From an uncultured bacterium (GTDB taxonomy: Bacteria; Hydrothermota; Tepidihabitantia; CAYHGV01; CAZWJY01), in the NCBI GenBank assembly GCA_964634335.1, contig CAZWJY010000001.1, positions 1 through 39,429 on the forward strand: a stretch of DNA of 39,429 bases. Reading direction: 5' to 3'. Below the pieces are notes generated by a model that had not been told where the DNA came from, made no database searches, and saw only the letters and a list, made by a program, of their open reading frames with translations. This document shows positions 9,274 to 37,854 of the stretch, one piece after another. The position numbers were made by a program, and so were the translations under genes. How positions within the stretch are numbered: the first letter of the stretch is position 1; each line of letters starts with the position of its first letter.

Positions 9274-12200
9274 TATTACCTTTTTTGTAATGCTCCCCTT
9301 TTTACTCTCCAGTCTATAAAAATAGATGCCTGGGGGAAGAGATGTGGCATCCCACCTCAAGGCATAGACCCCGGCTCCCCTCTCCTCTGATATTAGAGTT
9401 TTTCTGAGTCTACCTGTAATATCATAGACCTTAAGGGATATCCATGTTCTCTCAGGGAGCTCAAATGTGATGGAGGCAAAACCTGTTAAAGGGTTGGGAT
9501 GGGTAGTCAATCGGAATTTTGAAAGAGGAGGCTCTGATGATATCCCTGCTCTTACTGAATCAAACTCCACCTTTGCGAATTGGGTTATAGTGTTGGCATA
9601 TTCCTTCCCAAAACAGGGAGAGGTATAGGTAGCAGGGTCAGTAGGGGCTGCATCTAAGGCAGGAGAATACTCTCTTGAGAGGGTATCATAACCTGCTGAG
9701 AACAGAGAGATGTTTAAAATATTAGAATTATTGAATATCTCTGTTGGTATTCCCAGCTCTATAAATTTAGTAGTGGAGTCATAAGCCAGTATACATCCGG
9801 AGTCGGGAAAGAATATCCATTTATCCCAGGAAGCCCACTTCTCATTAGCCTCATCCCAGGGTATGAGCCATCCATAGGCTCTATTATCATTCAGATAGAT
9901 GCTCAACCCTATCTCACAGTCTATGGGGTGTGATTTCCCAAAGGCTACCCAGGTATTAAAAGCATCCTGAGTCTCTCCCTCTTTACCCTGATATCCACCT
10001 TCCTTATAATCGATTGCAAGCAGGTATGTAGTCCAGAAGGTATGGGTGAGGGCATCGAAGCCAAAATACCACCGATTTTCATCATTTGTGAGATAGAGGT
10101 TCTTAATCTCATAATCCTCGGTAGTAAAGTCAGGTGGGTCATAGGCGATAGGCTTCAGCCCTGCCCTTTCCCAATCCTTCTTATCTCCATCCACAGCTAT
10201 CTTTGAGGTCGTGGCATAGGTATAGAACCATCCTTCCTTTCCATCCTCAGACTCTGCCCTTACTATATAAAGCTGATAATCTGAAAAGGGTTTAAAGTAA
10301 TAGGACTCTCCTCCTTCCCTTTTATCAAGAGCAGGCATACCCAATATACCCTTGCATAGCTTATACTTCAGACTGGGTGAGTTGGTAGTGGTCTTTATAA
10401 CAATCCCCTCCCCTTCCCTTAGATGGAACACAGGGCAATTCTTTACATTAATATAGGTGGGGTTTTCTACAAAGAGCTCTGGGGTGGTATAATTCTTCCC
10501 TGTAATCTGGGGAGGAATCTTTAAGGCTGGGTCACCCAAAAGGGTGAAACAGAATATAGACCATTGATTATATAGATCTGTCATATCCTCAGAGCTTACA
10601 AATTCAAATATACTCTCTCTGTATATATCTCCCAAGTCTTCTGCCCCATTATGATAGGATCTTATAGTGTTGGTAAAGATTCTATCAAAGTAGTCATGGT
10701 CTGTAATTACAAGCCTCCCTTCATCAAAGTAATAGTCAAACCCTGCAAGGTTTGCCCTGGTTCCCCCAAAGAAGCATATCCCACCTGCCTTAGACTTGAG
10801 GACTGCCTCGCCAAAGGATATAGAGAACTTAAGGTCAGGAGCAAGCCTGGTATCAAAGGCACCAACTATACAGGCAGGGGTTATAACAAGAGGAAGATTC
10901 TCTGCCTTCTCGTAATTTAAAAGGGATTCTGCCTCTATGCCTGTCTCATCATCAAACCATATAGCAGAACCTGAACCATGTCCTGTTTCAAAGAATATCC
11001 CCACATTTCCCTCTGAGAGATAGGGAGTAAGGAAGGATGAGGAGAACCTATCGTCTGAAAATAGATATTTATTAAGGGTATGTCCGCTCAGATACTCCCT
11101 GTTAATACAATCAGCAAGCAGAGCCTCATCATAATAAGGGAAGGAATAGGGGAAGGGGTCCCCACCTGCTACTATTGTATTTGAGAACCACTGCCAACTG
11201 GCAGGATACCACTCCCTCAATTTTCTTATAACACCCATCGCTTCAGAAATATCGCTCACAGATATCCTTCCCACCTTGTAGTTGGGCACAAAGTCATAAT
11301 CTGGAGAGGCATAGAGGAAATCTGATGGTGCCCACCACTCCACATCAGTAAAAAGGGTATCCATCGCATAGTAATAACTGGGAGGAACCTCTTCGGCATC
11401 ACCAAGAATGGTTATATATTCAAGATTGGGATGAGAAGGGGTATCCCTTAGATAGCTTATTATCTTCCTCGCTAAACTGAAATCATATCCCTCTATACCC
11501 TCGGGTTCTCTCTGCGAATAACCCGGATAGGGTGGCTTAGGAGCCTCTCCATACACACTCTCAATCCATCCAGTGGCAATTATCTGAGTGGGAATACCCA
11601 GCTCTGTAGTATGGAACTCCTTTAAACTCTCAGCCACTCCTAAGAACTTCTCAGGAGAGATTATTATCCCTTTAAACTCAGGACCCTGACAGTGCACCTG
11701 TTGATAATTTATATTGTAATAGACCTTAATTGTGGCATCTGTTATGAGTAAAGCCTTCCCTTTGGCTGGAATATACTGGACAGGAGAGAATTTTAGAAAG
11801 AGGTAGGTAGAGTCCTTTGAAGAACCTGTATAAAAATCTACAAGTCTACCCGGAAAATATCGGGAAGAGTTATATATTCTCTTATCAGGAATGTATTCCC
11901 CTCCTCTATTATCCCCCCTTACAAGAGGTGTAGGGTTAGGGATGATTTTTAACACCTCCTCAATCTCAAGATACTGAATATCCTCTACTCTTATCCCCTT
12001 TACCTCACTGCCAAGGGGCAGTGCTATCACAAAACTCTTCAAAGGCAGTTTTGGCTCACCTGGTCTACCTTCCGGGGGGAGTCCATCTATATCCAGATAG
12101 GTATAACCTGGCAGAGGAGCTGGATAGAGACCACAGTTGGAGGGGTCTATCTTGTATTTAATACTGGAGATTAGTCCTCCTATAACCCCTGACCCAGTCT

Positions 12201-25111: not shown

Positions 25112-25521
25112 GATACAGATACATAAATCATACAGCAGATATAGGGTTCGAAATCTATGGAAGGGATTTAAAGGAGCTCTTTAAAAATGCTGCCTTTGCC
25201 CTATTTGATAATATGACAGAACTGAGAAATGTCCAGAGAAGAGAGAAGAGAAGAGTGATTCTCTCCTCAGATACCTTACAGGAACTTTTTTTAGATTGGC
25301 TCAGAGAACTCTTATTTATCTTCAGTACAGAGTTCTTTATCCCTAAGGAGATAGAGATGATAACCCTTAAACAGAAGAGATTAGAAGCAGAACTCTCTGG
25401 TGAGGTCTTTGATAAGAAAAGGCACAAAATAAAGATTGAGATAAAGAATCCTACCTATCATATGTTCTCCTTTAAAAAGATACCTGAGGGTTATACTGCA
25501 AGGGTAATATTCGATACATAG
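25108..25521 (+). CDS. archease
   Basis: The protein is 137 aa. 'YRYINHTADIGFEIYGRDLKELF' carries the archease HTAD(I/V) signature. It has an ATGA overlap with mnmA. Confidence 0.75.
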   Translation: MRYRYINHTADIGFEIYGRDLKELFKNAAFALFDNMTELRNVQRREKRRVILSSDTLQELFLDWLRELLFIFSTEFFIPKEIEMITLKQKRLEAELSGEVFDKKRHKIKIEIKNPTYHMFSFKKIPEGYTARVIFDT

Positions 25522-25536
25522 GAGTTACAGGAAGAT

Positions 25537-25677
25537 TTAAGATTCAAAGAAAGGGTCCTCTCTCTCCAGCCCTGCTCCCATACACTCATAATAGTCAGGG
25601 CACTCCTCACAACAGGTATCCTTCAATTTCCCCAGCTCCTTACATTCCTCATAATAGGGACAGATTTCACAACACAT
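25537..25677 (-). CDS. small Cys-rich protein B (46 aa, not in the ORF track)
   Basis: I translated it by hand as MCCEICPYYEECKELGKLKDTCCEECPDYYECMGAGLEREDPFFES. GGAGGA lies directly upstream of ATG 25677. It is a paralogue of the adjacent 58-aa ORF. Confidence 0.55.
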   Translation of the reverse strand: MCCEICPYYEECKELGKLKDTCCEECPDYYECMGAGLEREDPFFES

Positions 25678-25683
25678 ATCCTC

Positions 25684-25860
25684 CTATCTCTTAAAATACT
25701 TCCTCTTCTTTATAGCCCCTTCTCTTGTCTTTGTTCTACTTATCGTTCCTTCCAACTCCTCCATACAAGTCTCATAGTATTTACACCGTGGGCAGCAGTC
25801 CTCTGTCAATTTACCTTCAGCCTTACATTTTTCATAGGCTGGACAGGCACGGCAACACAT
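25684..25860 (-). CDS. small Cys-rich protein A (58 aa)
   Basis: The sequence is MCCRACPAYEKCKAEGKLTEDCCPRCKYYETCMEELEGTISRTKTREGAIKKRKYFKR. ATG 25860 lies 8 nt after AAGGAGG, and the GTG start used by the ORF track (25869) sits inside that SD. Confidence 0.6.
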   Translation of the reverse strand: MCCRACPAYEKCKAEGKLTEDCCPRCKYYETCMEELEGTISRTKTREGAIKKRKYFKR

Positions 25861-25865
25861 CCCTT

Positions 25866-26696
25866 TCACCTCCTTTTTAGAGAAAGGATAGCCTCTTTTA
25901 AAATCCCTGCTACTACTCCCCCATAGGCTGTTTGAGGAAATACTAAGGGGTTATACTCTACTATATCAAGCCCTATAACTTTTAAAAACGAAAGACCTCT
26001 CAGTGATTCTCTCAGTTCCTCATAAGATATCCCTCCAGGCTGGGGTGTAGCTACTGCTGGCATCAGACTCAAGTCAAGCACATCCAAATCTATGGAGAGA
26101 TACACCCACCTATCTCCAATCTCTCTCTTCACCTCTTCCATATACTCTAATACCCTAAATTTATAAAGATGAGCCACAAAGTCAAGCTCTTCTTTGCTGA
26201 TGGAACGGATACCGAGTTGAAAGATATTCTCTTTCCCTATAATCTCTGAGACCCTCCTCATCACTGTAGCATGACAATATCTCTCTTTCAGATACTCGTC
26301 CCTCATATCCGTGTGGGCATCCAATTGGATAACAGCCAGGCTGGGGTATATCCTTTTTGCAGCCTCTATTATAGGTAGAGTAATAGTATGTTCACCCCCT
26401 AAGAAGATGGGGATTTTCCTATCCTTAAAGATTCTTAGAGCCTCTTCCTCCACTCTTTTTAAGGGACTTGTGGGAGACTCGAAGGAGAACTCTATATCTC
26501 CTAAATCACATACCTTTACTAACCCAAGGTCTCTATCCTGATAAAGGCTATAGGACTCTATATTCTCTGAGGCTCTCCTTATATATTCTGGACCAAATCT
26601 TGCTCCGGGTAGGAAGGAGCTGGTCCTATCGAGAGGGCATCCCAGGACTACAACCTCTGCATCTTTATAGGATGTGTTAGCATACCAGAGTCTCAT
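25866..26696 (-). CDS. speB: agmatinase (arginase/ureohydrolase family)
   Basis: The Mn-binding motifs 'GGEHTIT', 'QLDAHTDMRD' and 'SIDLDVLD' are present. Length is 276 aa. Confidence 0.85.
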   Translation of the reverse strand: MRLWYANTSYKDAEVVVLGCPLDRTSSFLPGARFGPEYIRRASENIESYSLYQDRDLGLVKVCDLGDIEFSFESPTSPLKRVEEEALRIFKDRKIPIFLGGEHTITLPIIEAAKRIYPSLAVIQLDAHTDMRDEYLKERYCHATVMRRVSEIIGKENIFQLGIRSISKEELDFVAHLYKFRVLEYMEEVKREIGDRWVYLSIDLDVLDLSLMPAVATPQPGGISYEELRESLRGLSFLKVIGLDIVEYNPLVFPQTAYGGVVAGILKEAILSLKRR

Positions 26697-26705
26697 AATA
26701 CAGCC

Positions 26706-26733
26706 AAGATAAGGAATTTTAAATCTCTGTCAA
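26706..26733 (-). promoter_or_regulatory. sigma70-like promoter TTGACA-N16-TATCTT, 9 nt before ATG 26696
   Basis: On the minus strand, TTGACA is at 26733-26728 and TATCTT at 26711-26706. No SD lies in the 9 nt before the start. Confidence 0.45.
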
Positions 26734-26736
26734 GGT

Positions 26737-27384
26737 CTAACGAATAACCCCCAGCCAGTCCCTTAATAGGAACTGAAGTCTACCAATGAGCAAGGAGATT
26801 CTTGCCATAAAGGTATATCCAAATGAAGCACCAAAACCGACCATTATAAAAATTATCCCCAGCCTTGCGGCAGGTCTTAAAGCACCCTTCCGTTCCACAG
26901 AGAAGAAGAAATATGCAAGGGTAGACAGGACACCTATAAGGAGTATAATAGACCAGAGGATTCCCAAGTTGCCCGCATACCAGGAGGCGAAGTTCGCTTT
27001 GGTAAGGATGGTAGCCTGAATCTGACGGAGGAAGTTGGTCTCTATGGTCGCAGGTATAGATACCCCCATAGAATAACCCATAACCACTGCAATGGGCAAT
27101 CTGACCATCCAGGAGAGCCTCCTTATAAATCTCGTAAAGTATAAAACCCCCAAAATTGTTGGTATCATAAGCCACCAGTTTAAAGAGGGATTGGCTCTCA
27201 ATGGGTCCACAAGCTTTGGTTTTAAAAGAAGATGCCAGGTCATGGCTATACTATATCCATTTGCTACACCAACAAAGAGATGCTCGGCAAATCTGTATAA
27301 GGGATTGTCCTTATATAAGAAGGAGAAGATACATAAGGTAAGAAAGGCAGCTACCCACACCCAGATATTTGTAGAGAGACTCAC
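26737..27384 (-). CDS. polytopic membrane protein D of the uncharacterised cassette
   Basis: The 215-aa protein has ~6 hydrophobic helices. Its GTG start forms a GTGA overlap with gene C. The C-terminal 'PAARLGIIFIMVGFGASFGYTF' resembles 'TAAKRGIIFGVGLGMVATSLKI' of gene B. Confidence 0.6.
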   Translation of the reverse strand: MSLSTNIWVWVAAFLTLCIFSFLYKDNPLYRFAEHLFVGVANGYSIAMTWHLLLKPKLVDPLRANPSLNWWLMIPTILGVLYFTRFIRRLSWMVRLPIAVVMGYSMGVSIPATIETNFLRQIQATILTKANFASWYAGNLGILWSIILLIGVLSTLAYFFFSVERKGALRPAARLGIIFIMVGFGASFGYTFMARISLLIGRLQFLLRDWLGVIR

Positions 27385-28247
27385 TTCCTCCTCCTTATAA
27401 TAAAGTAGCTGATATTTCCAATAATGATAAAGATAATTATGAGAAAATGGGCAAAGGTCTGGGCACTCATCGCCTGGGTAGCTGGTCGGTATCTCTTCAC
27501 TCCACAGTGTTCTGCCACAAGTTCCTCGTATTCTGCTGCCCCCTTCATACCAGCGAGTAGACCACTAAACTGCCCTGACTGGAGATAAGGATAGAAGTCT
27601 GCAACAGATACCGCAGTAATCCCCGCCCCTACTCTCAATCCATACCTGTTCTGGGAATAGGCAAGATAGGAGAAAGGGGTACTACTCCCTGAAAGGGAGA
27701 CAAGGATAGCTACATCACGGAACTTCTTTATATGTCTCATAAGCTCTAAGGTATCTGTCTTATTGTGATAATAATCAGTGGGATATACCCCTGCTATACT
27801 CTCTCCCATACCCAATAGCCATGCTAAGGGAGGCCATGTCCAGCCTAAGAAGACATAATCCCTCCCATATATGACGCTATCCTCTCTGGTTTCTGCATTC
27901 TGGTTAATCTCCCTTGATGCATCTTTAATGGCATTCTCAGCAAGACCTATCCCTGTTATTGTCCAGGCAAGGACGCATACCCTTATATGCCTTTTGAAGG
28001 CATGCCTTAGTAGAGCCTTTGCCATAGGGTGGAGTTCTGGTGCAGTGTTGGGGTCATAGTCCACGGATATCATAAGGGCTTTGGAATAGGGAGGAATGGA
28101 GTCTATCACCCGAAATAGTTTCTCTGCCGGAGGGGAGGGATGGATGGGTATGATTATATGAACAATAAGGGGGATGGTTACCACTACCCCGAGTATGAGA
28201 TAGATTATTCTCCTATCTATCCTGCCCAGCCTCTCCCATATACTCAT
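27381..28247 (-). CDS. bitopic membrane protein C of the uncharacterised cassette
   Basis: N-terminal and C-terminal TM helices bracket a ~230-aa soluble domain. I chose the start at ATG 28247, which gives an ATGA overlap with gene B and has GGAGGTGGAGG upstream. The ORF track starts 6 codons earlier. Confidence 0.6.
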   Translation of the reverse strand: MSIWERLGRIDRRIIYLILGVVVTIPLIVHIIIPIHPSPPAEKLFRVIDSIPPYSKALMISVDYDPNTAPELHPMAKALLRHAFKRHIRVCVLAWTITGIGLAENAIKDASREINQNAETREDSVIYGRDYVFLGWTWPPLAWLLGMGESIAGVYPTDYYHNKTDTLELMRHIKKFRDVAILVSLSGSSTPFSYLAYSQNRYGLRVGAGITAVSVADFYPYLQSGQFSGLLAGMKGAAEYEELVAEHCGVKRYRPATQAMSAQTFAHFLIIIFIIIGNISYFIIRRRK

Positions 28248-28903
28248 CCTCCACCTCCAAGCCATCCCCTCTCAATCCCCAGAATTATCTTTAAGGATGT
28301 AGCTACCATCCCCAGACCCACCCCAAATATTATACCCCTCTTTGCTGCTGTATTGGGAATATTAAGTATCCATTCAGCAAAGGCAGGGAGTTTTGGGGTA
28401 ATGTAGTAACCCGTAGGAACCACTGCAAGCATTACAATAAAGGCAGCCCCTAAGAGAAGCGCAGCCTCTAAGTTCCTTGCCCTGAAGGCTCTATATGCAG
28501 CAGAGGTCATAAAAAAGGCTAAGAGGGCGAACATCGTCCCACCAAGAGGAATCACCACATTCATATAGATGGTCTGTATATCAAAATGGAAAGTCCCTAC
28601 GCTTGTAGGGATTACCCCTCCCCCTTTTACTCCCCCCAAGAGACCAATAATGGCTGTTATTATGAGACTGACAAAGAAGACATAACTGTAAGGCCAGTAC
28701 TCCTTTCTTCTTTTTATCTTTTCTAAATGGTGGTTTATAATACTACCCAGACCCAAGACAAGGGCAAAGGCAGTAATGACAGGGAGGACCCGGGTCACAA
28801 AGGCATTATCTACATTCTGCACAGCACGGTGGGGAACAAAGAAGGGAACCATAGCAATCCAGCCAAGGATGAAGACGATGGTTAAGGGTATTCTCCTCTT
28901 CAT
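28244..28903 (-). CDS. polytopic membrane protein B of the uncharacterised cassette
   Basis: The 219-aa protein has ~6 hydrophobic helices and a Gly-rich C-terminus. It has an ATGA overlap with gene A. Confidence 0.6.
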   Translation of the reverse strand: MKRRIPLTIVFILGWIAMVPFFVPHRAVQNVDNAFVTRVLPVITAFALVLGLGSIINHHLEKIKRRKEYWPYSYVFFVSLIITAIIGLLGGVKGGGVIPTSVGTFHFDIQTIYMNVVIPLGGTMFALLAFFMTSAAYRAFRARNLEAALLLGAAFIVMLAVVPTGYYITPKLPAFAEWILNIPNTAAKRGIIFGVGLGMVATSLKIILGIERGWLGGGG

Positions 28904-29985
28904 TCAAATAGACTAAGGACAGGAAACTTTGTGAGTAGCCCCACAATGCTTCCCAAAAGTATCAATCCTGTAATGATGAGCTTCCCCATATCCTGTCCCC
29001 TTAGAGTCCCTAAGAGGACAGGCTCCCTTGATATATAGGCAGAGGCTGCATAGAGTTCTTCACCTATAAGGGTATAGTCGCAGGCAGTTATGAAGAATGG
29101 GAGCTGAGCAGTAGAGTCCGTGCCTGCTATCTGTATAGCCCCTGTCGATGCCCCTGTCTCAGCAAGGATTAGAGATTCTGCCCAGAACATCCCTAATAGA
29201 AAAATCGTAGCTGGATTTTCTCTTACCATTATTCCATCAACAGCAGCAGCATAAGCAAACTGACTGGTAGTAACAAAGAATACACTATCAGGATTGAAAG
29301 CATCCGGTCTACCTACTGAACTATAGGACTCCTTTACTATCTCCCTTGCTACAGTATAGACGATAGGGTCTCTATTAGGAACCATTAAGGGAGTATCATA
29401 CTGGGCTGCCTTCTTTGCCACCTCTCCCAAAATGTTCAAAGAGGCAATGGTAGCGACATCCCTCATATCAGATGTCCCAGGAATGTAGAGGATAGGCTTG
29501 CCCATCTCTGTAGCTCTCCCTATCGCCTCCTCTACTGCATCAAGACCCGCTATCCTTCGTATAAAGAATCTCTTCCCCCCTTTAGCAGATTGGATAAAAC
29601 CCACAAAGAGGAGGATAATCACTATGGTTCCTACAAGGACATTCACCCTTTCTGTGTGAAACCACTGGGGAGAAGAGGTAACCACATTTGAGACCTCTGA
29701 AGCTACCCTCTCCCCTTCCCTCTTTGCTACTACCCGATAGTAGTATCTCACACCATCCTTTGCCCTATCATCCTTAAATACCCTTCTCCCCCTTCCTACA
29801 AACCCAACCTTTTTAAACTCTCCCTTTTCTTCTCTTCTTTCAATATCATAGCCCTCAAGGAGAGTATCGTCCTTAGAAAGTCTCCACTGGATAGTTATAC
29901 TTCCACCCTTATCATTCGGGGTATCTTTGGCAATTACACCTGTAGGAGGTGAAATCTGGGAGAGGAGGAAGAAGAAGAGGGTCAT
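28900..29985 (-). CDS. membrane protein A of the uncharacterised cassette (FN3-like ectodomain + TM + soluble domain + TM)
   Basis: An N-terminal hydrophobic segment is followed by a ~90-aa beta-sandwich-like region ('GGSITIQWRLS...GYDIERRE...GVRYYYRVVA'). Then come a TM ('VLVGTIVIILLFVGFI'), a ~200-aa domain and a C-terminal TM. It has an ATGA overlap with the MazG-like gene. Confidence 0.6.
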   Translation of the reverse strand: MTLFFFLLSQISPPTGVIAKDTPNDKGGSITIQWRLSKDDTLLEGYDIERREEKGEFKKVGFVGRGRRVFKDDRAKDGVRYYYRVVAKREGERVASEVSNVVTSSPQWFHTERVNVLVGTIVIILLFVGFIQSAKGGKRFFIRRIAGLDAVEEAIGRATEMGKPILYIPGTSDMRDVATIASLNILGEVAKKAAQYDTPLMVPNRDPIVYTVAREIVKESYSSVGRPDAFNPDSVFFVTTSQFAYAAAVDGIMVRENPATIFLLGMFWAESLILAETGASTGAIQIAGTDSTAQLPFFITACDYTLIGEELYAASAYISREPVLLGTLRGQDMGKLIITGLILLGSIVGLLTKFPVLSLFE

Positions 29986-30278
29986 TCTAAGAAACCCTCC
30001 TCACATCTACAAGGGGACTTCCCACACCTCGGGCATCCATAGGAGTATTTCTCAACAGCGTCCTCCAAGTCTATCTGATAGAGGTTGGCTAAAGAAGTAA
30101 GCCAGGCAAAGACATCACCAAACTCTCTCCTCTGATCCTCTTTATCTCCTCTCCTCAATGCCCTTGCCAACTCCCCCACCTCTTCTGTGAACCAGATAAA
30201 AGTCTTCTCTTTCCCCCTTCTCTTATCCCTCTCATAATAGGTCTGATATATCCTCTTCTGGAATTCTCTCAATTCCAT
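29982..30278 (-). CDS. MazG-like nucleoside triphosphate pyrophosphohydrolase with C-terminal Cys4 knuckle
   Basis: 'MELREFQKRIYQTY', 'FTEEVGELARAL' and 'EFGDVFAWL' fit the all-alpha NTP-PPase E-x2-E / E-x2-D pattern. The C-terminus carries 'CPRCGKSPCRC'. I chose the start at ATG 30278; the ORF-track TTG start (30311) is the -35 hexamer. Confidence 0.7.
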   Translation of the reverse strand: MELREFQKRIYQTYYERDKRRGKEKTFIWFTEEVGELARALRRGDKEDQRREFGDVFAWLTSLANLYQIDLEDAVEKYSYGCPRCGKSPCRCEEGFLE

Positions 30279-30283
30279 TTCTG

Positions 30284-30311
30284 ATTTTAACCAGAAATGG
30301 TGGATTGTCAA
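30284..30311 (-). promoter_or_regulatory. sigma70-like promoter TTGACA-N16-TAAAAT, 5 nt before ATG 30278
   Basis: On the minus strand, TTGACA is at 30311-30306 and TAAAAT at 30289-30284. Only 'CAGAA' separates the -10 box from the ATG. Confidence 0.55.
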
Positions 30312-30420
30312 GAGGCAGTAGAGAGCAATCTAAAACCTTCACCATATTGTGCCCTGCATCGCACTTAGGGCTAATTGGTGTAGTCAAAATATTATCCCTG
30401 TTTTTCCATGGTCTTAAAGA

Positions 30421-31041
30421 CTATCCGAGAATGATTCCTAACCTCTCGCAGGTATCTATTATCTCTCTGCTCTTCTCCAAGGTGATAAATGCTTTCTCTA
30501 TCTTCTTTATCCCTCTCTCCTTTTTAAAAAGCTCTGCCTTATCATTAAATCTCTCTACATCCTCCTTTTCAGCATAAGATTTAATCTCAAAGATAAGGGG
30601 GATAGTATCAGAGGCATAGAGGTCTATCTCATACTCCCTCCCCTTATCATCCATTATCTTCTTTCTCAAGACTACCTTCTGAGGCTTAATATCTGGGCGG
30701 CGGATGGCAATCCTTAAGGTTCCTGCAATAGCCTCCTCAAGACCCTTGCCAGCCCTCCTCTGAAACCCTCCCACTACTATACCTACCCAGTGCTGGAGGT
30801 CCTCAAATCTACGGTTAGTATCTTCTCTAAAAGCCCTCATCTCCCTGATCATTTCATTAAACCTTTTATTCATCTCTTCAAACCTCTTGTCGCTCCTCTC
30901 CATATACTCCTTAAGCTCTCCCCTTGTGACATACTCCTTAGAGAGAATCTGATAGAGCTCTACTTTTATCTCCGGGTGCTCCTTAAGTATATGGGGCAGG
31001 GCTTTAATCACCTTTTCAGGTGTTAAATCTGTAGTTCTCAT
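30421..31041 (-). CDS. PD-(D/E)xK nuclease-fold protein with N-terminal coiled coil (DUF3782-like)
   Basis: An N-terminal helical repeat 'DKRFEEMNKRFNEMIREMRAFREDTNRRFEDL' is followed by a C-terminal 'EYEIDLYAS...PLIFEIKS', which fits a D...E-x-K nuclease core. The family assignment is from memory. Confidence 0.5.
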   Translation of the reverse strand: MRTTDLTPEKVIKALPHILKEHPEIKVELYQILSKEYVTRGELKEYMERSDKRFEEMNKRFNEMIREMRAFREDTNRRFEDLQHWVGIVVGGFQRRAGKGLEEAIAGTLRIAIRRPDIKPQKVVLRKKIMDDKGREYEIDLYASDTIPLIFEIKSYAEKEDVERFNDKAELFKKERGIKKIEKAFITLEKSREIIDTCERLGIILG

Positions 31042-31106
31042 AATGAAATGAGAATAGCCATAAAGCAGAAAGTCAAGTGGGCTCTTTCCCCTCTCTATCC
31101 AAATTG

Positions 31107-32435
31107 TTAAAAGATTTTAAGGGCTAAGGAGGCAAGCCCTAATAGGACAAAGAACCCTATGCAGTCAGTAAAGGTAGTGAGGATTACCCCTGATGCCAAA
31201 GATGGGTCGAGCCCCAACCTCTTTAAAAGAAATGGTATAGCTACACCCATACCACAGGCAATACCCATATTGATTATAAGGGAGACAAAGACTAAGGGGG
31301 CAAGGATTAAGGGGGCATGGAAAACCCATGCTATAAATCCTGTAAGGGCTCCTACTGCAGTCCCTGTCAACAATCCTACCCTCAACTCCTTAAAGAGGAC
31401 CCTCTTTGCATCGGATAATTCAACCTCTCCAAGAGCTATACTCCTGATAATAAGGGTAAGGGTTTGAATACCTGCATTCCCTCCCATCCCGGCAACAATA
31501 GGCATCACAACAGCTAAGGTGACCATAGCCCTGATAGTATTCTGGAAGACCCCTACAACCGCAGCAGCAAGAAAGGCGGTGATTAGGTTTATATAGAGCC
31601 AGGGCAACCTTCTCATAGCAGATTTTGCAGGAGGAGCAAAAGCGCTCTCAATCTCTCCCATACCCCCAAACCTCAAAATATCCTCTGTGTTCTCTTCCTC
31701 TATTACATCCATTATATCATCATAGGTTATCACCCCTTTGAGAATACCCAGGTCATCAACCACAGGGACTAAACTCAACTCATACTTCATTGCTATCCTT
31801 GCCACATCCTCCTGGTCATCCATAGTATAGACCTTTGCTTTAAGAGGTCTTAAGATAGATTTTATGAGCTTTCTGGGAGAAGAGAAGACAAGGTCTCTTA
31901 GATGCACCCAACCCAATAGTCTCTTATTCTTATCGGTCACAAAGAATATAGCCCTTTTTGGTATATCTTCTCTCATCCTCTTTATCTTTCTCAATGAAGA
32001 AGCCACTGTATCTGTGGTATAAAGGGATAAGAAATCCAAACTCATCCTACCCCCAGCAGTATTCTCAGGATATTTTAAAAGTTCTGCAACTTCCTTAGAT
32101 GTCTGTTTTGGGATAGCCCTGAGAACCTCCCTCCTCCTTCGAGGGGTCATCGTTGCGACTATATCGGTTGCTTCATCCGAGTCCATCTCTGAGACCAGCT
32201 TTGTCAATTCAGGGCGGTCCAATTTGGCTAAGATTACTTTAAGGGAGAACTCATCCAGTTCTAAGAGTGTATCAGCAGCTACATCCAGATCAAGGTTTTC
32301 AAAGATGAGCAGTTTATGGACAGGGTCAAGCCTCTCTATTATCCTGGCAATATCTCTGTAATGGAGGGTCTTCAACAATCTCTTTATCCCTCCAAAATCT
32401 CCCTTCTCTAATAATTCCCTTATCTTTGAAATCAT
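31107..32435 (-). CDS. mgtE: magnesium transporter MgtE
   Basis: It has an N-terminal MgtE-N helical domain, a CBS pair and a C-terminal 5-TM domain ('AGMGGNAGIQT', 'TFTDCIGFF'). Length is 442 aa. Confidence 0.9.
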   Translation of the reverse strand: MISKIRELLEKGDFGGIKRLLKTLHYRDIARIIERLDPVHKLLIFENLDLDVAADTLLELDEFSLKVILAKLDRPELTKLVSEMDSDEATDIVATMTPRRRREVLRAIPKQTSKEVAELLKYPENTAGGRMSLDFLSLYTTDTVASSLRKIKRMREDIPKRAIFFVTDKNKRLLGWVHLRDLVFSSPRKLIKSILRPLKAKVYTMDDQEDVARIAMKYELSLVPVVDDLGILKGVITYDDIMDVIEEENTEDILRFGGMGEIESAFAPPAKSAMRRLPWLYINLITAFLAAAVVGVFQNTIRAMVTLAVVMPIVAGMGGNAGIQTLTLIIRSIALGEVELSDAKRVLFKELRVGLLTGTAVGALTGFIAWVFHAPLILAPLVFVSLIINMGIACGMGVAIPFLLKRLGLDPSLASGVILTTFTDCIGFFVLLGLASLALKIF

Positions 32436-33353
32436 CTATTCCTCAGACCTGATCTCTCCGATAAGTTCTTCCAGAAGGTCCTCAAGGGTGATAAGTCCCA
32501 CAGTCCTGCCCCTCTTGTCCTTTACCAGAGCCATCCCAACCCCTCTATTCTTCATCAACTTCAATACCCTCATTGGAGACTCATTAAGTTCAATAAAGAA
32601 AGGGATTCTGGGGATAGGATGTTCATCCAGGAGGAAATCCTTTATATGAGCTATTCCGATAATATTCTCCTTCTGCCCATCGTATATAGGATATCGGGAA
32701 TAGCCATATTTTTCTACAGCATCCTTTATACAGGAGTAGAGGTTCTCTCTGGGTATAGCCACAACCTGAGACAAAGGGACCATAATCTCTCTTATAGAGG
32801 TTTTTGAAAAGGAGAAGAGATTTGCTACAATCCCTCCTAATCTCCTTGGTAATCTCTCCCTTTTTGTGGCTTCTCTTATAGCAGCTATGAAGTCGCTCCT
32901 ACTGAAAGGGGGACGAGGTTTGGAGACCAGAAAATTCAACCTCCCAAATAGGGGATGGAGAGGGGATAGAAGAGTGTAAAAGATAGGTCCTATCTTAAGC
33001 ATTATGGATTCTGATGCCACTACAGAGTAGGATTTAGGAATAAACTCCCCTAATATAAGAGAGAGGGAGAGATTAATTATAATAGCCAGAGTGGCTCCTC
33101 CCGGACCTAATCTATCTACAAAGAATTTAGTAAAAAGCATAGAGGAGAGGACTACCATTATGTTAATTCCTATAAGGAGAAAGACTAACCCCTCCTCTTT
33201 TCTCTTCAATAGGTCTAAACCCCTTTGAACCTTTCCCTTCCCTTCCTTAAGCCAGTGGATAAGCCTTATAGGATTGGCACTTATAAGGGCAGTCTCAGTA
33301 GCTGAGAATAACCCTTGGATAAGGATGCATAGCACTCCAAAGAAGAGACTCAT
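32436..33353 (-). CDS. CNNM/DUF21 + CBS-pair membrane protein (short form, no CorC_HlyC domain)
   Basis: The DUF21 N-terminus ('FSATETALISANPIRL') is followed by a CBS pair ('IGIAHIKD', 'VGLITLEDLLEELIGEI'). The protein ends right after the CBS pair. Confidence 0.75.
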   Translation of the reverse strand: MSLFFGVLCILIQGLFSATETALISANPIRLIHWLKEGKGKVQRGLDLLKRKEEGLVFLLIGINIMVVLSSMLFTKFFVDRLGPGGATLAIIINLSLSLILGEFIPKSYSVVASESIMLKIGPIFYTLLSPLHPLFGRLNFLVSKPRPPFSRSDFIAAIREATKRERLPRRLGGIVANLFSFSKTSIREIMVPLSQVVAIPRENLYSCIKDAVEKYGYSRYPIYDGQKENIIGIAHIKDFLLDEHPIPRIPFFIELNESPMRVLKLMKNRGVGMALVKDKRGRTVGLITLEDLLEELIGEIRSEE

Positions 33354-34588
33354 CTCTTTATCTTTTTAATCAGCACTTTCTCAATCCTATGCCCTCTCAT
33401 CTCTTTTATCTCCAAAAATATGTCCTTATACTGGAACCCCTCACCCGGAGAAGGCAGCCTTCCCATTCTATGCTGGATAAATTCAGAGAGCCTGTTAAAT
33501 TCTACCCCTTTAAAAGAACCTTTAAAGAGCCTATCTAAGGTAAAGAGGTCAATCTCTCCATCCACAATATAGGTCTCCCTGTTCACTCTATGGTAGGGCA
33601 ACTCCTCTCCTGTATCATACTCATCCCTTATCTCTCCAAATATCTTCTCAAGGATATCCTCTAAGGTGACCAGCCCTGCTGTCTGTCCAAACTCGTCCAC
33701 TACTATAGCAATATGTAAGCCCCTACGCCTCAACTCTTCAAAAAGGGTTGCTAAGGGCTTAGATTCCACAACAAAGTATGCCTCCCTTATAAAGGGTTCT
33801 ATCCTCTCCTCCGCAGACTTTCCCAAGAGGTCTTTTGTATAAAGAATCCCTATAATATTATCCACCGTTTCTTCATAAACAGGTATTCTCGACCTCTTAG
33901 ATTTCTTAGCCAACCGAAGGGCATCCTTCACCCTTTTACTCTTTTCTAAGCATACCATCTCAATCCTTGGGGTCATCACCTCTGCCACGGTAGCCTGATT
34001 TAGGTCCAGAAGGCTATAGATAATCTCTTCCTCCTCATTCAAAAGGACTCCTGACTCTCTTCCCAGTTCTAACATCGTCTTAAGCTCCTCTTGAGTAGGA
34101 AATGGGACACGGGTTACAGACCTTCTTATAACTCTCCCTATCCCAGATAAGAGGGCAGTGATAGGATATATCACTGAAGCCCATACCCTGAGAATTCTGG
34201 AAACCCTTAAGGAGAAATGCTCTGCTCTATGAAGGGCATAGACCTTCGGAGATATCTCGCCAAAGAAGAGGAGAAGGAGAACCATTACCACAGTACCGAT
34301 GGGCAAAAGGTTCTCTTCTGGAATTCCAAGTCTTAAAGAGAGGGTAATAACAAAGAGAGTAAATATTGAGGAAGCGGCTATATTGACAAGAAGGTTAGAG
34401 AAGAGGATGGTGGAGAGGAGTCTCTCAGGAGTTCTCCTCAATCTCTCTATATCCCTCCCCTTCCCTTCTGCTTTTAATCTGGAGATCCCTATCCTTGATA
34501 AGGAGAAGAGGGCAGTTTCAGAGGCAGAGAAGAATCCAGAGAATATAAGAAGTATGCCAACAGATATTAAATAGAGAATCTCTCTCAT
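33350..34588 (-). CDS. CNNM/CorC-type hemolysin-family protein (DUF21 + CBS pair + CorC_HlyC)
   Basis: It has 'FFSASETALFSLSR', a CBS pair ('AGLVTLEDILEKIFGEIRDEYD') and a C-terminal transporter-associated domain. Length is 412 aa. Confidence 0.85.
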   Translation of the reverse strand: MREILYLISVGILLIFSGFFSASETALFSLSRIGISRLKAEGKGRDIERLRRTPERLLSTILFSNLLVNIAASSIFTLFVITLSLRLGIPEENLLPIGTVVMVLLLLFFGEISPKVYALHRAEHFSLRVSRILRVWASVIYPITALLSGIGRVIRRSVTRVPFPTQEELKTMLELGRESGVLLNEEEEIIYSLLDLNQATVAEVMTPRIEMVCLEKSKRVKDALRLAKKSKRSRIPVYEETVDNIIGILYTKDLLGKSAEERIEPFIREAYFVVESKPLATLFEELRRRGLHIAIVVDEFGQTAGLVTLEDILEKIFGEIRDEYDTGEELPYHRVNRETYIVDGEIDLFTLDRLFKGSFKGVEFNRLSEFIQHRMGRLPSPGEGFQYKDIFLEIKEMRGHRIEKVLIKKIKR

Positions 34589-34950
34589 AGATAGGTCCTC
34601 TCTCTCTCCTCCATCTCCTTATGAGAATAACCCAAGAGGTGGAGGAGTCCATGGAGGGCGAGCTTATAGCACTCCTCTCTCAGACTTACCCCATAATCCT
34701 TACAATTAGCCAGAGCCTGCTGGACGGATATATAGACCTCTCCCAAGAGATTAAAGTCTCCTTCAAAGGCTAAAACATCGGTGGGATAATCCCTTTTCAA
34801 AAATCTTTTATTCAAGTCTTGGATATACCTATTATCAACAAATATGATATTCAAATCCTTAGTCTCCCCTTCTTCTTTAAGGACTCTTCCCAGTATCCTT
34901 TTCAACTCCTCAGGGTCTATCTCCTCTGGTGGGTTAAATATCTCTATCAC
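34585..34950 (-). CDS. ybeY: rRNA maturation endoribonuclease YbeY
   Basis: The Zn site 'HGLLHLLGYSH' is present. Length is 121 aa, and the gene sits in the conserved phoH-ybeY-corC context. Confidence 0.9.
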   Translation of the reverse strand: MIEIFNPPEEIDPEELKRILGRVLKEEGETKDLNIIFVDNRYIQDLNKRFLKRDYPTDVLAFEGDFNLLGEVYISVQQALANCKDYGVSLREECYKLALHGLLHLLGYSHKEMEERERTYL

Positions 34951-36953
34951 TTATAATCTACTCTTGGATGGACTATACCCAGAATCATATGGAAGAAAGC
35001 CTTCTCTATCCTGGATAGGTCCCTTCTTGTAATAGGGGACTCATCCAGCTGTCCATCTCTAAACTTCTCTTCTATAGCCTCCCTTATTACCCTTCTAAGG
35101 TCCTCAGGATTTTTAGAACCCTTTGCCCTTACTACAGCCTCTACGGTATCAGCCAGCATTACAAGGGCTGCCTCCTTTGTCTGGGGTTTTGGTCCAGGAT
35201 AACGATAATCCTCCTCCCTAACCTCTCCTCTCCTCTTTGCCTTTCTATAAAAAGCCTCTACCCTTGTTGTCCCGTGATGTTGAAGAATGATATCTGTTAT
35301 CTCCCTTGGCAACCTATACTTCTTTGCCAATTTCACAGCCTCAGTAGTATGGGCAAGGATGGCTTTTACACTCTCCTGGGGAGAAAGTCTATCATGAGGG
35401 TTGGCTCTGCCTGTCTGATTCTCTATAAAGTATCTGGGCTTGTAAAGTTTGCCAATATCATGATAGTAACCCCCTGCCCTGGCAAGGATGGGGTCTGCTC
35501 CTATAGCCCTTGCCCCTGCTTCAGCAAGACCACCCACAGCAATAGAGTGCTGATAGGTTCCTGGTGCTAAGAGAGCCATCCTCTGGAATAAGGGATGGTT
35601 TAAATCTATAAGGTCCAAGAGGGATATATCTGTGGTTATAGAAAATATTCTCTCTAAGAAAGGGAAGATGAGCAGGGCCCCCATAGCTGAAATGAAACTC
35701 CCACCAGTCATCCAACCAAATCCGATAAGGAGATCCCTCCATCCTGAAGGGTTGGTTAAAAAAATCCCAAGGGCTCCGGCTATTAACATAAATCCAAAAC
35801 TGTAATAGAAATTCTTACGAGATCTTATCCAATAGATAGAGAGGGAAGCCCCTATCCCACAGAAGAGGAGAGGTATGAATAGGGAGAAGAGGGAACCTAA
35901 AAGGAGAGTAAATATAAGGGAGGAGAAGAGGCTGAAGAAAATTCCTGTCTCTATATCCAGAAAGAGAGCCAGAAGCACACTCCCCAGACCTATCGGGATA
36001 AGCCAGAAAGATAAAGGGTATAAGACCCTTCCTAAAAGGAAGACAAGGGAAGTGATAGTAAAAAGGAGATAGAACTTCCTCTCCTCTTGCCAGATATCCC
36101 TCTTCCTCAAGAAGAGATAGAGACCAAAGAGACTTAAAAGGGTTATATAGAATAAGTTAGGGATAAAGATGGCTTTGAATTTTGATGTCTTTCCCACACT
36201 GCGTAACCCGGATAACTTCAGAAGAGCCTCCTTATCCACCCTTTTATGAGCCTCAACAATAAGTTCCCCTGCCAATACATAACCCTTGGTCTTGGGAACC
36301 CTCTCCCTTGCTTCCGCCCTTCTACGCTCTGTCTCAGTCTCATCATAGAGGAGATTTGGCTTTAAAAATATTGATGAGAGCTCAAGGAGTGTCCTTTTGA
36401 GTCTCCCCCTCCTGGGAAAAAGCCTCTCCGCTTCCCTCTTTATCTCCCTTTCTGCCTGTTTAATAGTAAGGGGATGAGGAAGGATAGTATCTATCTCCTT
36501 ACCATCCCTTCTCAGGGTTATCTTCCCCTTTGGGACAGGTTTACTCTTGGAGACTCCTCTGGATAATAATGTATCCATAACAGTTGCCAGAGCCTCCAGG
36601 ACTTTCTTCCCATCCTTTGATTTCAGGATTTCCTGAGTCTTGGGAGGTAAGAGGGTAAACTTTGAACTTTGGAGCAGGGAAGTAATCTCCTTATGGAGAC
36701 TATCCCTTAGAAAGGGATTGAATCTGAAGACTAAAGGGGTAGAGAGAGCCGCCTCCTCTTCTTCCCTCTTTAGCTCTAAACTATCCTTGGGGATGGGAAA
36801 GGTATAGGGGGCAATGATATCTGATGGGGCTATGTCCCCCTCCTTGAACTTGTAAGGCTTTGGACCTGTGCGTAAAAATAGTAGATTTAAGATGATTAAA
36901 AAACATAGAGGGGCGAGGAGCCTTCTATAGGTTGTTAGTCCTCTTAGATTCAT
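34947..36953 (-). CDS. 7TM-receptor / HD-domain phosphohydrolase (PgpH/YqfF-type)
   Basis: The protein has an extracytoplasmic N-domain, a 7-TM block and a C-terminal HD domain ('HSIAV', 'YYHDIGK', 'QHHGT'). Length is 668 aa. Confidence 0.85.
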   Translation of the reverse strand: MNLRGLTTYRRLLAPLCFLIILNLLFLRTGPKPYKFKEGDIAPSDIIAPYTFPIPKDSLELKREEEEAALSTPLVFRFNPFLRDSLHKEITSLLQSSKFTLLPPKTQEILKSKDGKKVLEALATVMDTLLSRGVSKSKPVPKGKITLRRDGKEIDTILPHPLTIKQAEREIKREAERLFPRRGRLKRTLLELSSIFLKPNLLYDETETERRRAEARERVPKTKGYVLAGELIVEAHKRVDKEALLKLSGLRSVGKTSKFKAIFIPNLFYITLLSLFGLYLFLRKRDIWQEERKFYLLFTITSLVFLLGRVLYPLSFWLIPIGLGSVLLALFLDIETGIFFSLFSSLIFTLLLGSLFSLFIPLLFCGIGASLSIYWIRSRKNFYYSFGFMLIAGALGIFLTNPSGWRDLLIGFGWMTGGSFISAMGALLIFPFLERIFSITTDISLLDLIDLNHPLFQRMALLAPGTYQHSIAVGGLAEAGARAIGADPILARAGGYYHDIGKLYKPRYFIENQTGRANPHDRLSPQESVKAILAHTTEAVKLAKKYRLPREITDIILQHHGTTRVEAFYRKAKRRGEVREEDYRYPGPKPQTKEAALVMLADTVEAVVRAKGSKNPEDLRRVIREAIEEKFRDGQLDESPITRRDLSRIEKAFFHMILGIVHPRVDYK

Positions 36954-37854
36954 AAGCTTTTATTATAGAAGAGACGAGGGGTGGTCTTACAACATCCTCT
37001 TCGGTAAAATATATAAACCTTATCCCTTGAATCCCTTTTAACAGACCTTGGATTTCTACAAGTCCTGAGGATTTTTGTGAGGAGAGGTCTATCTGGGTTA
37101 TATCGCCTGTCACTACAGCCTTAGAGTTCCATCCCAGTCTGGTGAGAAACATCTTCATCTGTCCAGGGGTAGTATTCTGTGCCTCATCTAAGATTACATA
37201 AGAATCTGAGAGAGTCCTTCCTCTCATATAGGCTAATGGGGCTACTTCTATTATCCCTTCATCTATAAGTTTTCTTACTTTTTCCAGGGGGACCATCTCA
37301 TATAAGGCATCGTAGAGGGGGCGTAGATAGGGGTCTACTTTCTCCTTAAAGGTTCCGGGGAGAAATCCCAAAGACTCTCCTGCTTCCACCGCAGGTCTTG
37401 TAAGAATTATTCTGGAAACCTTATTAAGGGTAAGGAATGATACTGCCTTTGCAACAGCTAAGTAAGTCTTCCCTGTACCTGCGGGTCCAATCCCTATAAC
37501 AAGGTCAAAGTTATCCATAGCCTCAAGATACTCCTTCTGGTTCTTACTCTTTGGTCTAATGGAGAGCCTTGGGGTAATTATCCTTATCCCCTCCCCTATC
37601 CCCTTTATCCTCTCTATCTCCTGTTCTATCTCTGTAGGGGTAATAGGTCTATTCTTTCCCACTCTTTTCAATAAGACAGAGAAGAGTTCCTTTATCCTCT
37701 TCACTTCTGAATTATTACCCCTGATAATAATCCTGTCTCCCCTTACTGTTATTAAGGAGTCGAAGTGCCTCTGGATAAGACTCAGATTAGAATCGTGATG
37801 ACCCAGGAGGAGGAGGGGGTCAATTTTACCTATAGAAAGGGTTGTTCTCTTCAA
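36925..37854 (-). CDS. phoH: PhoH-like ATPase
   Basis: It has Walker A 'GPAGTGKTYLA', Walker B 'YVILDEAQN' and 'VVTGDITQIDL'. The start is TTG. Confidence 0.9.
   Translation of the reverse strand: MKRTTLSIGKIDPLLLLGHHDSNLSLIQRHFDSLITVRGDRIIIRGNNSEVKRIKELFSVLLKRVGKNRPITPTEIEQEIERIKGIGEGIRIITPRLSIRPKSKNQKEYLEAMDNFDLVIGIGPAGTGKTYLAVAKAVSFLTLNKVSRIILTRPAVEAGESLGFLPGTFKEKVDPYLRPLYDALYEMVPLEKVRKLIDEGIIEVAPLAYMRGRTLSDSYVILDEAQNTTPGQMKMFLTRLGWNSKAVVTGDITQIDLSSQKSSGLVEIQGLLKGIQGIRFIYFTEEDVVRPPLVSSIIKAYESKRTNNL

Follow-up and report, generated by a model that had tools for sequence, protein, structure and literature searches.

A conserved four-gene cassette with a DUF6754 protein probably encodes an undescribed inner-membrane machine in uncultured bacteria

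Introduction

Importers of the ATP-binding cassette (ABC) type combine a substrate-binding protein with two permeases of six transmembrane (TM) helices each and an ATPase. A partly similar layout is encoded on a 39,429-nucleotide contig of an uncultured bacterium of the Hydrothermota (CAZWJY010000001.1, positions 1 to 39,429; this whole stretch is called the window in this report). The contig stems from a Guaymas Basin/hydrothermal-vent metagenome, and its closest relatives are metagenome-assembled genomes (MAGs) of WOR-3. The region 30311–26737 on its minus strand is one operon, in which a MazG-like gene is followed by four genes for membrane proteins, here named A, B, C and D. The original prediction, made from the letters of the window, treated these five genes as one coupled cassette for the subunits of a complex and saw no recognisable family in the four membrane proteins.

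The A-B-C-D cassette resembles ABC importers in that C is predicted to be an outward-facing α/β protein, B and D are polytopic with about six TM helices and A carries a putative cytoplasmic α/β domain. Variable outer parts, a most conserved cytoplasmic module and several paralogous operons per genome are further common features. In contrast to ABC importers, A has neither Walker A/B motifs nor an ABC signature, and two TM helices tether its α/β domain to the membrane. Neither B nor D matches BPD_transp_1 or ABC2_membrane, and C has a single six-stranded domain instead of the two lobes of a binding protein. An adjacent ATPase was encountered once (locus L089) and does not recur.

Two other groups of proteins are comparable in part. 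Proteins of the GldG type (ABC_transp_aux) and Wzz consist of an N-terminal TM helix, a periplasmic domain and a C-terminal TM helix. C has the same arrangement and its gene lies beside that of a 6-TM protein; however, neither ABC_transp_aux (PF09822) nor Wzz is among the families listed for the C members in per-member Pfam scans (117 A, 68 B, 114 C and 62 D sequences, E ≤ 1), and the cassette has no ATPase partner. The pairs RnfA/RnfE and NqrD/NqrE each comprise two 6-TM proteins of ~200 aa with opposite orientation within an ion-translocating complex. B and D resemble them in being small (~215 aa) and polytopic, in their probably opposite orientation and in the company of bitopic subunits. 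Unlike these pairs, no B or D member matches the Rnf-Nqr family (PF02508), B and D are not detectably homologous (hhalign probability <1%) and conserved Cys/His patterns pointing to a flavin or Fe-S site are absent from the cassette. A is annotated as a DUF6754 (PF20539) protein; the link to B, C and D, the tandem arrays and the topology are absent from the annotations found.

On present evidence A–D stand outside every characterised system, B, D and the DUF6754 domain being set apart by sequence only; these three might be distantly related to a known fold. They probably encode an undescribed inner-membrane machine.

Conservation of the A-B-C-D cassette

Two collections of loci were compared. 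The genome set comprises 80 loci around relatives of A in species-representative genomes of WOR-3, TA06, Stahlbacteria, Latescibacterota, Cloacimonadota, Eisenbacteria, Zixibacteria, Coatesbacteria and CSSED10-310. Hidden Markov models (HMMs) of the A, B, C and D families were built from these loci and then used to score gene order. Sequence of 2.6 kb or more is available behind 97 A genes, and in 92 of these cases B, C and D come next, in this order. The A genes of the other five cases are an orphan (one), degenerate remnants (two), part of a truncated third cassette (one) or close to a contig end (one). The metagenome set comprises 80 independent loci from soil, lake and groundwater and was seeded with a C protein only ~40% identical to its genome-set counterparts. 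The A-B-C-D order is kept there too, with ~48 complete cassettes and nearly all others cut by contig ends; one locus (L163) has B and C only. The spacing is tight, with a median distance of 12 nt between A and B, −1 nt between B and C (54 of 100 junctions overlapping) and −4 nt between C and D (56 of 94).

The conserved unit, kept in uncultured lineages of the FCB group, therefore has four genes, A-B-C-D, not five. Conservation of order and tight spacing in ~160 loci from two separate collections supports the proposal that A–D behave as subunits of one unit. A search of metagenomes for co-occurrence of the four membrane genes had been suggested as a check on that proposal, and the distant-clade set returned the same order. 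The operon of the window has the features by which the cassette is defined, namely four genes on one strand in the order A-B-C-D with short or overlapping junctions.

Cassettes are frequently repeated. Head-to-tail ABCDABCD arrangements occur in 15 loci, and arrays of three complete cassettes are present in L084 (CP070705, 3739–15338), L075, L004 and L005. In the 2.7-Mb genome CP070686 cassettes are located in at least three separate regions. Tandem pairs outside WOR-3 consist of one cassette with an A of the main subfamily and one with a divergent A, which indicates that these duplications are old. A variant with the order A A B C D exists as well. Decay products were also observed: in L013 (6352–7891) A, A and B fragments lie between two intact cassettes. 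The A gene of L024 (7914–9068) appears to be an orphan, as B, C and D are all missing within 8 kb of it.

Of the neighbours only MazG recurs; clustering of all flanking open reading frames (ORFs) yielded no other widely conserved gene, and the remainder is clade-level synteny. Annotated surroundings are heterogeneous: Latescibacteria have PurF, Zixibacteria have sugar-ABC and OmpA genes, and JAUXGM has a glycosyltransferase together with LpxC. No Rfam riboswitch or RNA leader was detected ahead of the cassettes in the window or in 10 loci. Collections of plasmids and phages contain no match to the cassette, and none of the seven proteins searched matches a PADLOC defence HMM at E ≤ 0.1; a defence, plasmid or phage origin was rejected on these grounds.

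The families are large. A has at least 8000 database relatives and D has 6070. For C, clustering at 90% identity gives at least 3001 clusters, and 3508 representatives at 50% identity are found with E ≤ 1e-3, 503 of them below 1e-30. Database relatives of A, C and D are named only 'hypothetical', 'DUF6754' or 'FN3 domain-containing'.

Subunit A

Gene A (28900–29985, minus strand) encodes 361 aa. The product matches the Pfam family DUF6754 with 400.1 bits (E = 4.3e-120, gathering threshold 27) over profile positions 3–249 of 257. A is thus a full-length member of a named family, contrary to the original prediction, and the same match is present in 117 of 117 aligned A relatives. The profile spans TM1, the α/β domain and TM2.

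The order of elements in A is a short N-terminal hydrophobic export signal, a fibronectin type III (FN3) domain, TM1, the α/β domain and TM2, with two strong TM segments in total. This agrees with the FN3-like ectodomain, TM helix, soluble domain and second TM helix described from the window. The FN3 domain (residues 13–105; 29671–29949, minus strand) is predicted to be periplasmic. Its assignment is based on a match to titin FN3 (E = 1e-8) and on the Foldseek comparison of the model (probability 1.0, TM-score to target 0.6–0.78). The Pfam fn3 profile scores 12.6 bits with A of the window, below the cutoff of 25, and matches 72 of the 117 A relatives. Export of the domain is indicated by homologues with classical signal peptides ahead of FN3. 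Distant A proteins of 255–284 aa in L087 and L090 have no FN3, so the domain is optional.

The α/β domain (residues 140–320; 29026–29568, minus strand) is the most conserved element of the system. Its mean pairwise identity in the sampled loci is 0.69, compared with 0.34 for FN3 and ~0.4 for the TM helices. Since the count of Lys and Arg rises from 0.7 before TM1 to 3.6 after it, this domain of ~180 residues is most likely located in the cytoplasm. Conserved motifs are GRATEMGKP, AETGA, QIAGTD, QLPFF and CDYTLIGEELYAASAY, and the invariant residues include Arg157, Glu160, Asp228, Glu270, Glu276, Asp290, Cys302, Asp303, Glu309 and Glu310. The conserved Asp332 and Lys335 are situated at the TM2 boundary. 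A Walker motif is absent from A; GRATEMGKP differs from GxxxxGK[ST].

The AlphaFold2 (AF2) model of A has a mean pLDDT of 77 and shows β-α-β alternation, with low confidence for residues 243–297. Residues 256–285, with ETGASTGA at the tip, have a hydrophobicity of 1.42, just below the TM threshold. An amphipathic helix of a Rossmann-type domain is the simpler reading of this segment; a third membrane segment or re-entrant hairpin is possible.

Subunit C

Gene C (27381–28247, minus strand) encodes 288 aa. The AF2 model (pLDDT 87, pTM 0.86) consists of TM1 (residues 12–28), a six-stranded Rossmann-like domain (39–248) and TM2 (255–287), which bears out the soluble domain between two TM helices that had been described from the window. 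Comparison with the PDB by Foldseek gave a best E-value of 3.6e-3 with a TM-score of ~0.3, that is, generic Rossmann neighbours at noise level. These weak neighbours are Rossmann halves of GT-B glycosyltransferases, LOG/PpnN and isochorismatase-like hydrolases.

Glu71 and Asn278 are invariant in a diverse alignment, and Asp63, Asp130, Asp158, Thr211, Gln226, Tyr240, Glu241 and His267 are nearly so. Two of these conserved polar residues, His267 and Asn278, lie within TM2. The Rossmann-like domain has an identity of 0.47. One representative carries a large insert with CARDB and another has HEAT repeats (examples of accessory inserts in C and D are L145 800–1816, L089 5823–7028 and 9833–10609, P0366 and P0489). 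Positive charges at both termini, together with CARDB and other insertions, place the domain in the periplasm.

Subunits B and D

Gene B (28244–28903, minus strand) encodes 219 aa with six hydrophobic segments. Charge bias suggests a topology with both termini in the cytoplasm (N-in/C-in). Conserved motifs are SAAYRAFRAR in a cytoplasmic loop and PNxAAKRG...LGIERxWLGG at the C-terminus. Accordingly distributed identities are 0.78 for cytoplasmic loop 4, 0.75 for the C-terminus and 0.26–0.29 for the outer loops 1 and 3.

Gene D (26737–27384, minus strand) has a GTG start and encodes 215 aa with four strong and two weaker hydrophobic segments. The original description of both proteins as ~6-TM holds for B, and D is better described as having 4–6 TM helices. 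Motifs of D are FSFLYKDNPxYRFAEH in loop 1 and GFGASFGYTVMARISLLIGR in TM6, and the identity of loop 1 is 0.75. In the soil/lake clade D has a seventh, C-terminal TM helix ending in RKK, and one member has an Ig-like β-rich insertion in loop 4. These two features and the charge bias favour a topology with both termini outside (N-out/C-out), which is probably the correct one. With this topology the conserved loop 1 (YKDNPxYRFAEH) would be cytoplasmic.

Charge bias and lineage-specific insertions suggest that B and D are inserted in opposite orientation. For the whole cassette the predicted sidedness is then a cytoplasmic domain of A, a periplasmic domain of C, B as N-in and D as N-out.

B and D had been proposed to be paralogues that share a C-terminal motif and form a pseudo-symmetric core. 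Comparisons by hhalign, on alignments of 88–108 sequences and on more diverse alignments, gave no signal for this (P = 0.06–0.07, and the aligned regions are not the C-terminal motif); together with the probably opposite orientations this leaves the proposal without support. Paralogy of A and C was rejected likewise (P in the range of 0.03–0.07, non-corresponding regions aligned). The models of A and C have the same alternating order of helices and strands.

Family searches

B, C and D have no match in Pfam or NCBIfam, either as single sequences or in the per-member scans, and B has no relative in the PDB. Recurrent weak matches in these scans are hydrophobic noise only (DUF373, Acyl_transf_3, DUF3704). 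PDB searches with single sequences and with the four family profiles returned only FN3. The check by profile and structure searches that the original prediction had proposed thus places A in DUF6754, a family of no known function, and leaves B, C and D family-less, with Foldseek matches of C at noise level.

No transporter, secretion, redox or ATPase signature was detectable in A–D, in agreement with the first reading of the window. In particular, there is no ABC_tran match (Walker A/B, LSGGQ of the nucleotide-binding domain) in A–D, no BPD_transp_1, ABC2_membrane, FtsX, MlaE or LptF/G among the scanned B and D members and no signal of MotA_ExbB, ExbD, TonB or OmpA in A–D.

An ABC ATPase as partner of the cassette was considered and rejected, because the adjacency in L089 is the only one and was not repeated in 80 further loci. 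In this groundwater locus an OppD-like ABC ATPase (ABC_tran and oligo_HPY; 10615–11574) is encoded 6 nt after D of the second cassette, with no cognate permease genes alongside.

The MazG-like gene

The leading gene (29982–30278, minus strand, 98 aa) belongs to the MazG superfamily (PF03819), which it matches with 42.6 bits (cutoff 22). The acidic helix motifs are kept as EEVGELARA...EFGDVFAW, following the EExxE...E/DxxD pattern. The product is predicted to be a small, single-domain, all-α NTP pyrophosphohydrolase of the MazG type with a CxxC-x4-CxC knuckle. Single-domain size and Cys knuckle distinguish it from other members, and its scores are far below the NCBIfam equivalog thresholds for MazG. 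The tail reads CPRC-x4-CRC, and GCP[KR]C-x4-C-x-C is present in 22 of 22 cassette-linked MazG homologues.

A MazG of the same subfamily is encoded upstream of the first cassette in ~22 of the 80 loci of the genome set. In these genomes its median distance to A is 361 nt and none of the 22 pairs overlap, often with a 23S_rRNA_IVP gene in between, and an array has one MazG even if it contains three cassettes. None was found in the 80 loci of the metagenome set or beside the Zixibacteria, groundwater or JAUXGM cassettes. The pairing is restricted to a WOR-3/TA06/Stahlbacteria-like clade. The MazG protein is therefore a lineage-specific neighbour outside the conserved machine that, in the window, is drawn into the transcript of A and coupled to A. 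It is not the fifth member of the unit and the clue to its enzymatic activity that the original prediction had seen in it.

Two side observations concern the genes next to A. Ahead of the L084 array lie one MazG and a 23S_rRNA_IVP gene; behind it, Por_Secre_tail and PorV are encoded on the opposite strand. In a Latescibacteria contig (L085/L086, 8550–11137) the last base of purF, encoding amidophosphoribosyltransferase, is also the first base of A, and purF is a second nucleotide-metabolism gene coupled to the cassette.

Possible functions of the cassette

The products of A–D would form one hetero-oligomeric inner-membrane complex, as suggested by gene order and by the shared conservation of their cytoplasm-facing parts. 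The tentatively favoured function is that of a translocation machine, a transporter for a solute or an envelope component, with a probability of roughly 0.4. Periplasm-facing parts are variable and gain β-sandwich or repeat domains, while cytoplasm-facing parts are strongly conserved. Translocation is favoured by this combination of a variable outside, membrane parts of intermediate conservation and a most conserved cytoplasmic module, along with four genes and several paralogous sets per genome. Such a pattern is that of binding-protein-dependent uptake systems.

Such a machine would be a stoichiometric assembly in which each A:B:C:D unit contributes roughly 14–16 TM helices, with B and D as the membrane path. 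C and the optional FN3 and Ig-like additions could serve as the outward-facing specificity module, and the DUF6754 domain of A with the conserved cytoplasmic loops of B and D might be the coupling or catalytic heart. A more far-reaching version is doubtful: the FCB superphylum would have a translocation machine of a new kind, laid out like an ABC importer but made of unrelated folds, with the membrane-anchored DUF6754 domain as a coupling or catalytic module that is not of the P-loop type and with expansion into several substrate-specific paralogous cassettes per genome.

Several observations weigh against translocation. A–D are similar to no transporter family (Pfam, NCBIfam and PDB profiles; Foldseek for C only). 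No TM helix has a conserved acidic residue of the ion-coupling type halfway along it, and A lacks a nucleotide-binding motif. Residues 243–297 of A are at once its best conserved stretch and the least confident part of its AF2 model, which leaves the fold unsettled; Foldseek results for the full-length model of A are dominated by FN3. Furthermore, the stoichiometry and physical association of A–D are read from gene order and from nothing else.

The first alternative is a complex of envelope-biogenesis enzymes. A would be the catalytic subunit, dependent on a nucleotide or lipid carrier, B and D would handle a lipid-linked intermediate, by flipping or by holding it, and the Rossmann-like domain of C would finish the reaction outside, as in three-component glycan modification of the GtrA/B/C type. 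The α/β domain of A has an enzyme-like look, with 69% identity and invariant Cys, Asp, Glu and Arg. The kind of weak structural neighbours of C (GT-B halves, LOG/PpnN, isochorismatase-like hydrolases) points in the same direction, and envelope genes are sometimes near (glycosyltransferase and LpxC in L090, Bac_transf in L085). However, all Foldseek matches of C are at noise level (E ≥ 3.6e-3), no subunit belongs to a glycosyltransferase, acyltransferase or PAP2 family and the neighbour genes are not conserved. Three to five paralogous cassettes per genome are also more than is usual for a single biosynthetic step. An enzyme complex of this kind is therefore unlikely.

A trans-envelope energiser or motor comparable to ExbBD-TonB, TolQRA or GldLM is less probable still. 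Here, ion flow through B and D would drive the periplasmic parts, C and FN3, which would touch peptidoglycan or the outer membrane. The hosts are diderm: BamA is encoded on the same contig as the operon, and PorV and Por_Secre_tail occur beside WOR-3 cassettes. Four-gene energiser clusters in several copies are typical of FCB bacteria, and periplasmic FN3, CARDB and Ig-like additions could reach partners in the envelope. These points are outweighed by the lack of any energiser family among the subunits, by bitopic subunits without a conserved intramembrane Asp (the conserved polar TM residues are His267 and Asn278 of C) and by the dispensability of FN3 in distant members. The subunit architecture is also unlike that of 5:2 motors, which have a stator of 3–4 TM helices and a plug subunit with a single TM helix.

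A transmembrane receptor or signalling complex, in which variable periplasmic sensors would act through the A domain on a conserved cytoplasmic partner, is improbable to the same degree. It would account for the variable outside and conserved inside, the expansion of paralogues and an FN3 domain on a bitopic subunit. Yet no kinase, GGDEF, HAMP or anti-sigma output domain and no conserved regulator gene nearby was found, and two polytopic subunits with highly conserved TM4–6 (B) and TM6 (D) are unexpected for a pure sensor.

A five-subunit system with MazG as an integral, stoichiometric enzymatic subunit, for example in nucleotide-linked transport or detoxification, is very improbable: the ATGA overlap with A in the window, the zinc-knuckle subfamily ahead of first cassettes and PurF directly upstream of A in a Latescibacteria contig speak for it, but the wide gaps, the single copy per array and the absence from distant clades described above do not fit.

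The cassette could represent an architecture not yet among the few known membrane machines for transport or energising. The families are large and occur in lineages known from metagenomes only, with A and D each in thousands of clusters at 90% identity, and three of the four subunits have no family model while the fourth is a DUF. The strict conservation of the A domain makes it likely that the cassette is central to the feeding or the envelope building of these bacteria. Once defined, it would no longer appear in thousands of MAG annotations as a recurring string of 'hypothetical proteins'. Should it prove to be distantly related to a known transporter, a kinship so far overlooked, less would be gained, but annotation would still profit. 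The sequences are public as hypothetical or DUF proteins only. Nothing in the literature searched describes the operon, the topology of its products or the lineages that have it, and no paper there mentions DUF6754/PF20539 or joins WOR-3, fibronectin type III and membrane.

Operon layout and gene starts

The five ORFs on the minus strand are joined by four consecutive 4-nt start/stop overlaps, ATGA at 29982–29985, 28900–28903 and 28244–28247 and GTGA at 27381–27384, exactly as first described. The MazG ORF reaches 30311 from a TTG, and this TTG coincides with the −35 hexamer of the promoter. Translation starts most likely at the ATG at 30278, which is backed by gene calls on sibling contigs and by 22 homologues. 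An earlier ATG of gene C at 28265 is present in the ORF list; the start at 28247 is preferred because of an identical database protein (P0001) and ~100 homologues of 287–291 aa. The GTG start of D is confirmed by a database protein (P0241) with 99% identity.

The σ70-like promoter TTGACA-N16-TAAAAT (30284–30311, minus strand) upstream of the operon is present as originally predicted. Two sites in the region 25500–31200 match in 11 of 12 positions; the second is on the plus strand within gene D, so that the promoter is the sole one placed upstream of the operon. Promoter-like sites in these 5.7 kb number 16, compared with 9.6 ± 3.2 in shuffled sequences. As this enrichment is mild, the site by itself is weak evidence.

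With the −10 box ending 5 nt ahead of the MazG ATG, and no Shine-Dalgarno sequence in front of this start, the operon transcript may be leaderless. For A, C and D, GGAGG-type sites lie within the gene before. B has no Shine-Dalgarno sequence and its translation probably relies on coupling to A.

Neighbouring genes in the window

The speB gene and a Cys-rich gene lie downstream of the operon. Neither is linked to the cassette in other genomes, and the suggestion that they might travel with it was not borne out. The Cys-rich ORF downstream of speB (25684–25869, minus strand, 61 aa) has a GTG start that overlaps the speB stop as GTGA, and no match in Pfam or NCBIfam. A second Cys-rich ORF (25537–25677, minus strand, 46 aa) follows in tandem, and both have the common pattern MCC-x2-CP-x-YE-x-CK-x2-GKL-x3-CC-x2-C-x-YY-x-CM.

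Upstream of the operon, 30421–31041 (minus strand) contains an ORF of 206 aa with a coiled-coil N-terminal half and a weak match to PD-(D/E)XK_10 (E = 5e-4). Gene calls on the sibling contigs L081 and L082 split this stretch into two genes (108 and 87 aa), so a frameshift difference between the assemblies is possible. Further upstream, the minus-strand block 31107–37854 encodes MgtE, two proteins of the CNNM/CorC type, YbeY, a 7TMR-HD protein and PhoH, and is thus composed of genes associated with magnesium and with ribosome maturation.

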